Sequence record: PQ571307
From: Shigella phage SF1-1
Direction: 5' to 3' (one strand)
Length of the DNA stretch: 64,000 nt
Below are positions 57,290 to 59,436 of the stretch, one piece after another. A model generated the notes under the pieces. The model made no database searches. It was not told the origin of the DNA and saw nothing but the letters and a program-made list of their open reading frames with translations. Every line of letters starts with the position of its first letter. Position 1 is the first letter of the stretch. Position numbers and translations under genes: made by a program.

Positions 57290-57508
57290 ATGCGTAAATT
57301 AGTGAGCTTTAATGTTTCAATTCTTGTTGATGAACAAAATGAAGATGTTATTAAAGGTCTTGCAAATAAGATTGCAGGTGGAATGACGGAAGCTGAAGTG
57401 TGGGAAGAATGTGCTCGACTTTATGAGGAAGGTGTTATTGAGGTCTTGGGGGATGAGATTAATATGGACGATGTTGTAAAAGTAACTGTGGAGCGTATCA
57501 ATGACTAA
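57290..57508 (+). CDS. hypothetical protein
   Basis: 72 aa ORF with AGGAGAA RBS. Confidence 0.45.
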   Translation: MRKLVSFNVSILVDEQNEDVIKGLANKIAGGMTEAEVWEECARLYEEGVIEVLGDEINMDDVVKVTVERIND

Positions 57509-58094
57509 ATCAAAACAAATCAATATTGCCAAAGAAATTCTTACCGTATTAAAGATCGCTGATCCTAATTCTGTCTTGGCTGGCGGTGCTGTTCGTGATT
57601 GGCGTATTCTTGATATTGCTGGACGTGATCTGGATTTCTATACATCCCTTCCTGCACATCGGACTGAAGAACAAATACAAGGATTAATTGCATCTGCTTT
57701 AATGGGAACCAATATTCGTAAACTAGGAAACAAAGAGGCTTCTGATAATTATGAAGGTGTTACTGGTCTTAAACACGTTTTTGAGTTTGAACGTGATGGT
57801 CAGCTTTGCAACCTTATGATTATGGAACCAAGCGTAATGACAACCTTTCTGAATGAGTTCGATCTGTCCATCTGCCAGGCTGCATTTGATGGGAAGGATT
57901 GTTATTATTCTAAAGATTTTGAAACAACCTTGGAAACAGGGATCTGCTTCTTGCACAAAGATGTTAGAGAAGATGCCAAACACGTTATTAAAATTGCTAC
58001 ACGTTTCCCATATCTTCGTTTTGTGAAAGAGGTTAAGGTTCCACGTCCACCTCAAGTAGATACCAGATTGGAAGAAGATGATATTCCTTGGTAA
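57501..58094 (+). CDS. Pol-beta-superfamily nucleotidyltransferase (GGxVRD motif) with SSB-like acidic C-terminal tip
   Basis: LAGGAVRDWRILDIAGRDLDF = GG...13 residues...DxD NTase signature as in CCA-adding head domains; C-terminus EEDDIPW resembles the SSB tip DDDIPF. Confidence 0.55.
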   Translation: MTKSKQINIAKEILTVLKIADPNSVLAGGAVRDWRILDIAGRDLDFYTSLPAHRTEEQIQGLIASALMGTNIRKLGNKEASDNYEGVTGLKHVFEFERDGQLCNLMIMEPSVMTTFLNEFDLSICQAAFDGKDCYYSKDFETTLETGICFLHKDVREDAKHVIKIATRFPYLRFVKEVKVPRPPQVDTRLEEDDIPW

Positions 58095-58103
58095 TTAAAG
58101 CTT

Positions 58104-58133
58104 GACAATATTAAACATTTTATGATAGGATAG
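58104..58133 (+). promoter_or_regulatory. sigma70-like promoter (TTGACA-18-TAGGAT)
   Basis: Upstream of 58140 gene. Confidence 0.45.
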
Positions 58134-58139
58134 CATTCA

Positions 58140-58532
58140 ATGACTGAACGTTCTAAGATAGCTGTTGAAACTGTTTATGGAAACTATACCAGTTTGACAC
58201 TAGTTGAGAAAAATGTTGTAGGTCTTGACAACTCTTTTTATTTTCAAATTTTGGTTATTCAAGGTGGAAACAAGAAGCTAACTGCTCGTGTTGAAACATC
58301 TGAAATAATTGAAACCACTGTTACAAACAAAGAATTCATTTCACTGCAAGATACAATCCGAAACGTTATAGACGAAGAAGGCAAAGCTGCCACAATTAAA
58401 CTCGGAGGTTTTCCAGTGCAAATAGTTCATTTCCCTAATGGTGAAATTGGAGTTGGAATAGGTAAAGGTAAATACCTGTTAGAGCAAGATGATATGGAAA
58501 GACTCCGCTCTTTCTGTGCAAAATTAATGTAA
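58140..58532 (+). CDS. hypothetical protein
   Basis: 130 aa ORF. Confidence 0.55.
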   Translation: MTERSKIAVETVYGNYTSLTLVEKNVVGLDNSFYFQILVIQGGNKKLTARVETSEIIETTVTNKEFISLQDTIRNVIDEEGKAATIKLGGFPVQIVHFPNGEIGVGIGKGKYLLEQDDMERLRSFCAKLM

Positions 58533-58548
58533 TGTAGAGGAGATAATA

Positions 58549-59436
58549 ATGTCCGTAATTAATACTGAAACTGATCGTAAAGGCAAAACCGTAACTTATG
58601 CAACTGGTATCGTAGACTACGTTAAGCTGGATAAATTCGCCGAACCTAAAACTTTTCATTGGGAAGGAAAAACGATTGTTTCAACTCACCGAGCTTCTCT
58701 TGTTCTGAAAGAGAAAGGTGCTAAACCAGATGAGAAAGGTGTTTGGATTTCTCTTGGTGACATTGAACTGAAAGAAGGTTATGAAAACCTGCAAGTCAAA
58801 GAAGGTGATAATTGGATCACTATTGAAAAAGGTGTAGAAGTAAGTATTGATATTGATCGCGTTGATAATAAAGGCGGTAAAACTTACTACAATACTAAAA
58901 AATCTCGTATTACAGTATTGTCTACCGATGGTGTTCAGAAGTCTAACAAATCTTCCGGCAATAAAGGTTCCAACGATGCTGCTCCTAAACAGTCCTATAA
59001 AAAACGTGATACTGTAGGTCTGGAAACTGGTCACGCAGTAAATGGTGCACTGGAACTGATTCGTAATGGTGTTAAAGGCGATGCTTTCGATATCGCTGGG
59101 GTTGTTCAATCTGCAACTGTCACGCTGAAATCTGAAATTGCTGAATCTCGTGGCGTTGATATTAATGATTATGATCTTGGGGCATCTGTTGGTCACGCTA
59201 TTCTCAATGCTTGTAAAGACCATACCATTAAGACTGTATCTGTAGAAGATCTGATTGACTCTGCTCGTAAAGTTCTAGCTCTGTCTGATAAAGTTGCTGC
59301 TGCCATTCGTGGTTCCGCAGAACAACCTAAGAAAGAAGAGAAGAAAGAAGTTAAAAAACCTGAACCACAACCAGAACCAACTCCAAGTAATCAAGAAGAA
59401 CCTCCAATGGACTTCGATGATGATATTCCATTCTGA
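58549..59436 (+). CDS. ssb: single-stranded DNA-binding protein
   Basis: 295 aa; Pro/Glu/Lys-rich linker and C-terminal PPMDFDDDIPF matching the E. coli SSB acidic tip. Confidence 0.8.
   Translation: MSVINTETDRKGKTVTYATGIVDYVKLDKFAEPKTFHWEGKTIVSTHRASLVLKEKGAKPDEKGVWISLGDIELKEGYENLQVKEGDNWITIEKGVEVSIDIDRVDNKGGKTYYNTKKSRITVLSTDGVQKSNKSSGNKGSNDAAPKQSYKKRDTVGLETGHAVNGALELIRNGVKGDAFDIAGVVQSATVTLKSEIAESRGVDINDYDLGASVGHAILNACKDHTIKTVSVEDLIDSARKVLALSDKVAAAIRGSAEQPKKEEKKEVKKPEPQPEPTPSNQEEPPMDFDDDIPF

Follow-up and report, generated by a model that had tools for sequence, protein, structure and literature searches.

We analysed a 64-kb stretch of DNA (the window), which was assigned to a Phapecoctavirus-type E. 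coli myophage. Its replication genes include a short nucleotidyltransferase (NTase) gene, separated by one gene from that of an SSB-like protein. The genes and signals considered here are:

50602 to 52380, plus strand: gp4-like primase-helicase (Toprim and DnaB_C; phrog_239 annotation in EF1-1)
53707 to 56304, plus strand: family A DNA polymerase (Pol A), a candidate reader of acidic tails (PF00476 at 1.4e-13)
57501 to 58094, plus strand: NTase gene, 197 aa, class II (CCA-adding/poly(A) polymerase type) head domain and a putative C-terminal docking tail
58140 to 58532, plus strand: gene of a conserved 130-aa protein, between the NTase and SSB-like genes (phrog_16560 at 1.1e-76)
58549 to 59436, plus strand: SSB-like protein gene, 295 aa, with an OB-like region (1-125), a linker, a four-helix domain (156-253) and a disordered tail (254-295)
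59468 to 59491, no strand assigned: bidirectional terminator-like hairpin that ends the replication operon and faces a convergent tail gene

The order Pol A, NTase, 130-aa protein, SSB-like protein is common to the Stephanstirmvirinae (phi92, FKP3 and IMG/VR loci). In relatives, the annotation of the Pol A counterpart is DNA polymerase I or T7-like polymerase, and the terminator-like hairpin is kept in 536P1 and phi92. The 130-aa protein holds the same position in phi92 (gp157), FKP3 and the IMG/VR loci L012-L021; it showed no PDB match and no similarity to the SSB-like profile. Distant NTase homologues adjoin DNA ligase or 5'-3' exonuclease genes in the loci inspected, and every NTase neighbourhood inspected is one of DNA replication or repair. 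A PADLOC search found nothing.

The first-pass annotation had described the NTase as a small member of the Pol-beta superfamily, had proposed structure prediction as a check and had named unconserved catalytic residues as the finding that would speak against it. The predicted structure is a confident class II (CCA-adding/poly(A) polymerase) head-domain fold. Fold comparison placed PAP I and CCA- or A-adding enzymes nearest to the model. Two segments hold the predicted catalytic residues:

57576 to 57641, plus strand: NTase motif A, residues 26-47 (LAGGAVRDWRILDIAGRDLDFY, LAGGAVRDW...DLDFY), with the predicted catalytic Asp43 and Asp45
57777 to 57785, plus strand: NTase residues 93-95 (V-F-E) on a beta strand, probable third catalytic carboxylate (h[DE]h)

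The class II signature, GGxVRD and then DxD, is present at residues 26-45, and in the family profile motif A aligns with that of CCA-adding enzymes (6ibp, 1ou5, 1miv). The catalytic aspartates turned out to be conserved: D43 and D45 are invariant in 92 family members, at least 95% of which keep G28, G29, R32 and W34. In the structure model, V-F-E is carried by a strand at residues 90-98. Position 93 is V or I in 88 of the 92 members and position 95 is E or D in 69; E95 is probably a catalytic carboxylate, judging from the Pol-beta superfamily pattern. The superfamily assignment was borne out by the conserved motif A together with this predicted third carboxylate.

The nearest known enzymes are the class II tRNA nucleotidyltransferases and PAP I (PF01743; PcnB, 3aql; the B. 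stearothermophilus CCA-adding enzyme, 1miv). In class II enzymes, NTPs are selected by motif B (RRD) and motif D (EDxxR). The phage NTase differs from them in having neither motif and no body or tail (tRNA-binding) domain: its roughly 175 folded residues lead directly into a disordered, SSB-like tail. Sequence conservation in the 92 homologues shows that RRD is missing and that the matching stretch, EFDLSICQ, has a family-conserved S-I-C instead; 'EDAKH' at residues 155-159 is variable, with H161 and K164 conserved in place of EDxxR. The Pfam head-domain family (PF01743) matched residues 26-65 only, at 13.9 bits against a gathering threshold of 23. NCBIfam matches to the NTase were likewise below threshold, and comparison with the PDB by sequence alone gave only noise. 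Unusually for a nucleic-acid enzyme, the NTase has an acidic catalytic domain (net charge −4, pI 5.6). Other close known proteins are stand-alone head-domain proteins and short phage NTases: 2la3, phrog_10174, phrog_1614, the phiKMV-type LKD16 NTase and ICP1 ORF223.

Two activities had been suggested for the NTase at first, the production of nucleotide signals and the addition of nucleotides to RNA 3' ends, as in tRNA CCA repair. A signalling (cGAS-like) enzyme was rejected by the fold ranking, and the NTase does not have the fold and architecture of a CD-NTase; a role in nucleotide signalling is therefore disfavoured. An RNA 3'-end enzyme, repairing tRNA CCA ends or tailing RNA with poly(A) and carrying its C-terminal tail incidentally, would suit the closest folds (PAP I, CCA- or A-adding enzymes), the GenBank annotation of the NTase ('tRNA nucleotidyl transferase / poly(A) polymerase') and a phage with 10 tRNA genes and an RNA ligase. 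However, neck motif D and the body and tail domains are absent, RRD and EDxxR are not conserved, and in the loci inspected the NTase gene never adjoins tRNA genes and stands beside replication or repair genes. We also considered whether the phage tRNAs need CCA addition, and rejected this: all 10 of the tRNA genes encode their own CCA. Because of these missing domains and motifs, the CCA-encoding tRNAs and the replication or repair neighbourhoods, tRNA CCA repair is disfavoured. The RNA 3'-end model also leaves the selection on the C-terminal tip unexplained (see below), and we regard it as quite unlikely. The window itself contains no tRNA gene.

We then compared the C-termini of the NTase and of the SSB-like protein:

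58026 to 58091, plus strand: disordered NTase tail, residues 176-197 (KEVKVPRPPQVDTRLEEDDIPW), with the tip EEDDIPW at 58071-58091
59398 to 59433, plus strand: SSB C-terminal tip of the SSB-like protein (EPPMDFDDDIPF), the last 12 residues identical to E. coli SSB (1eqq, 7f2n)

The NTase ends ...RLEEDDIPW, with the stop codon directly after W197. Its tail is predicted to be flexible, with a mean pLDDT of 56 over residues 181-190 and of 41 over 191-197 (below 50 across 190-197). Like the E. coli SSB C-terminus (SSB-Ct, MDFDDDIPF), the NTase tip forms the very end of the protein, follows a disordered linker and consists of an acidic run followed by I-P-aromatic, with a free C-terminus. It differs from SSB-Ct in having Trp for Phe, in being carried by an enzyme rather than by an OB-fold tetramer, and in being present once per molecule. 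The terminal Phe of SSB-Ct is absent from the whole NTase clade, every member of which ends in Trp.

Ten clusters of NTase homologues, 98% to 59% identical, all end in DDIPW except one, which ends in DDSFPW; [DE]-D-I-P is kept in nine of the ten. The 12-15 residues that precede the tip vary in both sequence and length between clusters. The two Asp codons of the tip vary synonymously or conservatively (GAT GAT, GAC GAC, GAA GAT), and ATT CCT TGG TAA is unchanged. The tip is under purifying selection. The likeness of the NTase tail to the SSB tip, noticed in the first-pass annotation, was upheld, and the observation of two such tips close together was confirmed, with one gene between them.

We asked how often such ends occur by searching every ORF of 30 aa or more in the window for the C-terminal pattern [DE][DE]x0-1[ILVM]P[FWY]. 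Only the NTase and SSB-like ORFs matched. In 536P1 (98.8% identical, 148-kb genome), the NTase is the sole ORF whose free C-terminus fits. From the window's own amino-acid composition, about 0.002-0.003 such ends would be expected by chance per 300 proteins. A functionless tail that resembles the SSB tip by chance could be argued from the shortness of the tip (five residues) and from the many NTase family members without it. Yet such a tail is extremely improbable given the expectation of ~0.003 per genome, the invariance of the tip in homologues up to 40% divergent, whose codons for it differ synonymously, and its recurrence in unrelated branches of the family.

This recurrence is scattered. 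The majority of NTase family members lack such a tail, and six or seven distant members end in IP[FW] (P0138, DDIPW; P0218, NDIPW; P0240, DDGIPF; also P0246, P0256 and P0271), their closest relatives being without such ends. A scan of IMG/VR found no close relatives of P0138. Ends of the form P[FWY] are 3.6-fold enriched in the NTase family (p=0.0017), although the background used for comparison already contains many SSBs. The IPW tip is missing from the annotated short NTases inspected (phi92, FKP3, ICP1, VnaP and 1.253.O). In sister lineages with the same synteny, the NTase tails are acidic and end otherwise: NNEEFKI in phi92, DAWDDDKI in FKP3, EFMDEI in L013 and SPDVFNF in L017-21. Thus, the exact tip is not essential to the enzyme, and these tails would fit a lineage-specific partner.

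An acidic tail might also be autoregulatory, as those of SSB, gp2.5 and Hfq are, by folding onto the substrate groove of the NTase as a nucleic-acid mimic or by covering the OB fold of its SSB-like neighbour. Competition with nucleic acid is common among acidic C-terminal tails (SSB and Hfq, for example), and the acidic non-IPW tails of the sister lineages would suit such autoregulation. On the other hand, the catalytic domain of the NTase is net acidic, and autoregulation leaves the strict terminal I-P-W and its free-carboxylate position unexplained; we consider it very unlikely.

The SSB-like protein ends ...EEPPMDFDDDIPF. It is composed of an OB fold and a helical domain, and so has the OB fold of a bacterial-type SSB. 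No SSB sequence family (PF00436 or NCBIfam SSB) matched across the OB domain. Matches to SSB families came from the tail alone: NF006533 covered residues 254-295 (22.8 bits against a cut-off of 260), and SSB PHROGs matched over residues 247-295 only. In 53 aligned homologues, all ending in PF, P294 and F295 are invariant and D288, D290 and D292 are at least 90% conserved. About 15 of the 120 homologues among the matches listed have an extension of about 15 residues past IPF, and all the listed homologues that stop at the tip end in PF. The extended form (APIGLQY...) is found in 536P1 and phi92. A recent capture of the 3' end of host ssb was considered as the origin of the tip and rejected (84% identity over 43 nt, E ~0.9); the nucleotide matches were mostly to plasmid ssb genes, and this weak likeness is consistent with constraint at the protein level only.

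The first reading of this neighbour as a phage SSB with the E. coli tip held up in the form of an OB-fold SSB-like protein, homologous to Bas52_0087 over the OB domain as well as over the helical domain and tip. [quoted passage not shown] The two proteins share the FDDDIPF tip, and D154 of the SSB-like protein, a nearly invariant residue, is aligned with D252, the escape site of Bas52_0087. They differ in size and in domains: Bas52_0087 has 408 aa and an extra inserted OB domain that the SSB-like protein is without. The inspected flanks of bas52_0087, about 3.5 kb each way, contain no NTase gene.

Taken together, these results suggest that the NTase belongs to the replication module and is tethered by a tip-type docking motif to a host or phage partner, a tentative reading to which we give a probability of about 0.45. 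Because its tail copies the SSB docking tip, the NTase is likely to be anchored to the machinery of replication or repair. The analysis shows the fold, motif A, tail disorder, the selection on the tip, the synteny and the recurrence of such tips in the NTase family and in other phage replication proteins; the Trp end, the absence of the tip from sister lineages and from most of the family, the acidic catalytic domain and the subthreshold Pfam score are points against tethering.

For binding by the tip, its partner and the substrate we infer the following scheme. The NTase would be an active, stripped-down class II enzyme of about 175 residues with a head-domain fold, working within a DNA replication module made up of the family A polymerase, the NTase, the 130-aa protein and the OB-fold SSB-like protein. 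Its flexible tail of about 20 residues would present [DE]-D-I-P-W, a linear docking motif of the SSB-tip type with a free C-terminus, and this tip would insert into a pocket whose usual ligands are SSB-type tips. The pocket could lie on host SSB-interacting proteins (e.g., ExoI) or on the phage polymerase or helicase. Docking would concentrate the NTase at ssDNA and replication intermediates, where it might add nucleotides to nucleic-acid 3'-OH ends. The tip may also compete with SSB for the pocket.

The two kinds of partner can be weighed separately. If, along the lines of the first-pass annotation, the tip mimics host SSB, the NTase would reach or block ExoI/SbcB, RecJ, RecQ or PriA and either act there or compete. 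The I-P-aromatic end marks the tip as one of the bacterial SSB kind, as opposed to the D-F end of the T7 type, and the SSB-like protein of the phage copies the last 12 residues of host SSB exactly. Bas52_0087 is genetically linked to ExoI-controlled DRT10 immunity, with a proposed interaction of its C-terminal tip with SbcB (bioRxiv 10.64898/2026.04.29.721553). Moreover, the 15-aa extension caps the SSB-like tip in 536P1-type phages, so that the NTase tip is the only free one there. Targeting of host proteins is nevertheless unlikely: the tip ends in Trp rather than Phe, it is missing from sister genera that infect the same host, and a single tip on a monomeric NTase would compete poorly with tetrameric SSB. 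In four phages we looked for covariation of the NTase tip with the form taken by the C-terminus of the SSB-like protein, and found none: IPW is combined with an extended SSB-like protein in 536P1 and with a free IPF in the window, and NTases without IPW are combined with an extended form in phi92 and a free IPF in FKP3.

The tail could equally well dock within the phage replisome, on the family A polymerase or on the gp4-like helicase, the NTase being a replisome accessory. The phage has a T7-like replisome (Pol A and a Toprim-DnaB_C primase-helicase), and its NTase gene comes after that of the polymerase. A precedent for such docking is T7, where gp4 and gp2.5 use one common site on the polymerase, gp5, for their acidic tails (PMC12339929): a replication protein other than SSB shares the tail type and the aromatic end of the phage's own SSB, in a replisome of the same design (Pol A and a gp4-like helicase). 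The related phage contig L085 has D-x-V-P-F ends on both its gp4-like helicase and its gp2.5-like SSB. The acidic, hydrophobic-ended and divergent NTase tails of the sister lineages are as expected for co-evolution with a phage partner. Against this, the T7 tails end D-(T/G)-D-F without I-P, the NTase tip having the motif type of host SSB; the phage primase-helicase ends ...PTDSNY, with no comparable tip; and no terminal transferase has a known role in a T7-type replisome. We hold a partner in the phage replisome to be improbable.

A more specific form of the tethering reading is that the NTase, through its mimic of the SSB tip, is delivered to host SSB-interacting proteins (ExoI/SbcB) or to their ssDNA 3' ends and modifies the protein or the DNA or RNA end. 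We consider this doubtful. If true, the delivered NTase could shield phage replication intermediates or blunt forms of ssDNA-based immunity (DRT10, retrons) in which ExoI sets the threshold, and it would be the first non-SSB viral enzyme to hijack the SSB hub.

The SSB C-terminal tip is a central address label of bacterial genome maintenance, with ~17 or more host readers, and is also being explored as a target for antibiotics. The presence of a conserved copy on a phage enzyme suggests that phages reuse this code to place extra activities at ssDNA. It also offers a concrete and cheap handle for testing a widespread family of short phage NTases and connects with recent work in which the family of the SSB-like neighbour, together with host ExoI, was tied to DRT10 immunity. 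A literature search on SSB-tip mimics on non-SSB phage proteins, and on the Phapecoctavirus NTase, returned nothing specific. In related contigs the same label occurs on phage helicases and initiators: near NTase homologues we found a gp4-like helicase ending ...ADDRVPF, a gp2.5-like SSB ending ...DEDVPF and a replication initiator ending ...DDEEGLPF. Trp-ended tips (...DIPW) are also present there, on phrog_862 proteins of phage replication modules.

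The NTase gene and that of its SSB-like neighbour are separated by one small gene:

57501-58094 (+), NTase, 197 aa; LAGGAVRDW...DLDFY; C-terminus ...RLEEDDIPW
58140-58532, 130-aa protein, between the NTase and SSB-like genes
58549-59436 (+), SSB-like protein, 295 aa; C-terminus ...EEPPMDFDDDIPF

Reading both ends confirmed the first-pass annotation: the NTase ends in EEDDIPW, and the final 12 residues of the SSB-like protein are identical to those of E. coli SSB. Among the ORFs of the 64-kb window, only these two end in acidic-[ILVM]-P-[FWY], and of the ORFs in the 148-kb genome of 536P1, which is nearly identical, the NTase alone has a free end of this type. 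The amino-acid composition of the window predicts ∼0.003 such ends per 300 proteins; the two tips are not due to chance. Two other ORFs end in P-F, a 92-aa protein directly upstream of the primase-helicase (50311-50589, ...EAEYMMETNEPF) and a 74-aa ORF (35110-35334, ...GGDELQRLPF), and may carry weaker tip-like ends or reflect coincidence.

The region 56300-59500 is 95–99% identical to ∼65 genomes of Phapecoctavirus (Stephanstirmvirinae, E. coli myophages of ∼150 kb), the closest being 536P1 and UP17 (both 98.8%). All ten NTase homologue clusters, from 98% down to 59% identity, end in DDIPW, bar one DDSFPW, while the linker before the tip varies in sequence and length. In the DNA, the two acidic codons of the tip vary (GAT GAT, GAC GAC, GAA GAT) and the terminal ATT CCT TGG TAA is constant among the sequences compared. 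None of the single-base neighbours of TGG encodes an aromatic residue, so the invariant Trp may mark a requirement for any aromatic residue and not for Trp itself.

Outside this clade, IP[FW] or IPY ends occur on scattered family members of 30–45% identity (...PDDIPW in P0138, ...SNDIPW in P0218, ...DDGIPF in P0240, ...NDTIPF in P0246, ...PYIPF in P0256, and ...KPIPF in P0271) whose nearest relatives lack them. P[FWY] ends are enriched 3.6-fold in the family (p=0.0017) over a background of neighbouring ORFs, themselves rich in SSB-like proteins. The tip is not found in every syntenic relative. In the sister genus Justusliebigvirus the NTase ends in NNEEFKI (phi92 gp158) or DAWDDDKI (FKP3), and other IMG/VR relatives end in EFMDEI, HWTDEI, or SPDVFNF; these tails, acidic and hydrophobic-ended, do not resemble the SSB tip.

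We found one conserved gene order, running from the family A polymerase through (HNH), small ORFs, the NTase, the 130-aa protein, and the SSB-like protein to a terminator, in EF1-1, phi92 (gp159-gp156), FKP3, phiWec186, phiWec190, and IMG/VR contigs L011-L021. The replisome is T7-like, with a Pol A and a Toprim-DnaB_C primase-helicase. A DNA ligase gene lies beside the distant NTase homologues of ICP1 and VnaP, and in Vibrio phage 1.253.O the homologue adjoins a 5'-3' exonuclease and an RNase H-like protein. No tRNA genes lie beside the homologues at these three loci, and all 10 phage tRNA genes encode their own CCA ends:

536P1 (L091) 1255-3293, outside the window, tRNA cluster of 10 genes: Met x2, Arg, Ser, Asn, Thr, Gly, Gln, Pro, Ile

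Several genes nearby deserve mention. The HNH endonuclease ORF (56334-56912, 192 aa, phrog_953) lies directly 3' of the polymerase gene; alignments to most close relatives do not start until query position 611, so these lack the HNH gene or carry something else in its place. The gene probably encodes a mobile homing endonuclease. The polymerase ORF (53707-56304) encodes 865 aa in the window, ∼860 aa in FKP3, 1110 aa in EF1-1, and 1104 aa in phi92, and the Bas52 CDS is annotated as two joined pieces, which suggests a variable insertion (intein, intron, or extra domain) in this subfamily. Just upstream of the primase-helicase, four consecutive ORFs (47167-50311; 187, 227, 315, and 314 aa) are the counterparts of four EF1-1 genes annotated as glycosyltransferases; with the DNA adenine methyltransferase gene just before the polymerase gene, they may serve DNA or surface modification. 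The 45 nt that separate the NTase stop from the 130-aa gene contain a promoter-like site (58102-58131; perfect -35 TTGACA, 18-nt spacer, TAGGAT, TG extension), in a region where such sites are no more numerous than expected by chance.

Is the NTase a tRNA-repair enzyme? Relatives' records call it 'nucleotidyltransferase' or 'putative tRNA nucleotidyl transferase / poly(A) polymerase', and the family profile matches motif A of CCA-adding enzymes. The NTase itself scored 13.9 bits against the Pfam PolyA_pol head (cut-off 23), and a PDB sequence search returned no significant match. An exhaustive HMMER search, clustered at 50% identity, yielded 264 representatives, most of them 175–230 aa long; in BFVD, short 'poly(A) polymerase head domain' proteins of putative function are widespread among phages (phiKMV-like phages, ICP1, and Vibrio, Caulobacter, Pectobacterium, and Acinetobacter phages). 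Among 92 aligned representatives, D43 and D45 are invariant, G28, G29, R32, and W34 are kept in at least 95%, K164 in 99%, and V93-x-E95, the probable third catalytic carboxylate, in ∼75%. In genuine CCA-adding enzymes and poly(A) polymerases, the RRD and EDxxR signatures select NTPs. Neither is conserved across the 92 members, and the NTase lacks body and tail domains. We disfavour tRNA CCA repair and the making of nucleotide signals, both named in the first-pass annotation as activities of such NTases.

With 26 homologues as input, AlphaFold2 gave a confident model (pLDDT 85.7, pTM 0.80) in which residues ∼176-197 are disordered. Such a tail could possibly be autoinhibitory, but the catalytic domain is itself acidic (net charge -4, pI 5.6) and fits this poorly. 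Taken together, the comparisons best support a predicted-active minimal class II NTase that would belong to the replication module and be held there by a docking motif of the SSB-tip type; that the tail is such a motif we put at slightly below even odds.

What would read the tip? In T7, gp4 and gp2.5 have acidic tails with a terminal Phe, and both tails use one polymerase site; PDB 6P7E holds a gp4 DTDF peptide, and the gp2.5 tail contacts a basic patch (PMC12339929). Contigs fetched around NTase homologues carry similar ends on helicase, SSB, and other replication proteins:

L085 3062-3904 and 6199-6750, gp4-like helicase and gp2.5-like SSB, ...ERADDRVPF and ...DLDEDVPF
L044 3740-4216, replication initiator or DnaD-like protein, ...VDDEEGLPF
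L042 3134-3805, phrog_862 protein, ...DKDIPW
L036, phrog_862 protein, ...GDDVPW
L009 1759-2457, phrog_862 protein, ...GEDIPW
L051, phrog_862 protein, ...GEDTPW

The phrog_862 proteins thus indicate that the W ending is a natural variant within phage replication modules. Seen across unrelated phage contigs, SSB-type tips on non-SSB replication proteins seem to form a broader, largely unremarked phage pattern. Both the NTase family and the SSB tip have been described before; our literature searches found no account of the two together, or of the wider pattern beyond T7 gp4. We weigh phage candidates for the reader (Pol A or the helicase) about equally with host SSB-interacting proteins such as ExoI.

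The neighbour bears on the host reader. Its homology to Bas52_0087 of phage RudolfGeigy spans both domains (E values 8e-13 and 9e-16). Escape mutations identified Bas52_0087, described as an SSB-like protein whose FDDDIPF C-tip is conserved, as a factor needed for DRT10 triggering, and it was proposed to interfere with host ExoI/SbcB (bioRxiv 10.64898/2026.04.29.721553). Its escape site D252 aligns with D154, nearly invariant in the SSB-like alignment. The docking hypothesis for the NTase tail, clear, cheap to test, and with good comparative support, ties in with ongoing studies of ExoI, SSB-like triggers, and DRT10.

In the model of the neighbour, an N-terminal beta domain (1-125) is joined through a disordered linker to a four-helix domain (156-253), and the chain ends in a disordered tail. 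The Phapecoctavirus records label it 'hypothetical protein' or 'single-stranded DNA-binding protein', and its family is large in Stephanstirmvirinae and Vequintavirinae. Assignment to PF00436 was rejected, as SSB profiles match the tail only. On these findings together, the earlier label, 'phage SSB', is reasonable for a putative ssDNA binder. Among the matches listed, most of 120 homologues end in ...D[IVL]PF, and ∼15 of the 120 clusters, some very distant, run on beyond IPF for ∼15 residues.

The SSB-like gene is polymorphic at its 3' end (window 59425-59460; 536P1, L005 39130-39290; phi92, L002 5400-5540). In phi92, 536P1, nieznany, and Mt1B1_P17, DFDDDIPF is internal and followed by a conserved 15-aa extension, APIGLQYGRNFLHCF, which would cover the tip's free carboxylate. 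The window differs by a single base (CCATTC TGA versus CCATT TGC) and a ∼50-nt deletion, which together end its protein exactly at IPF.
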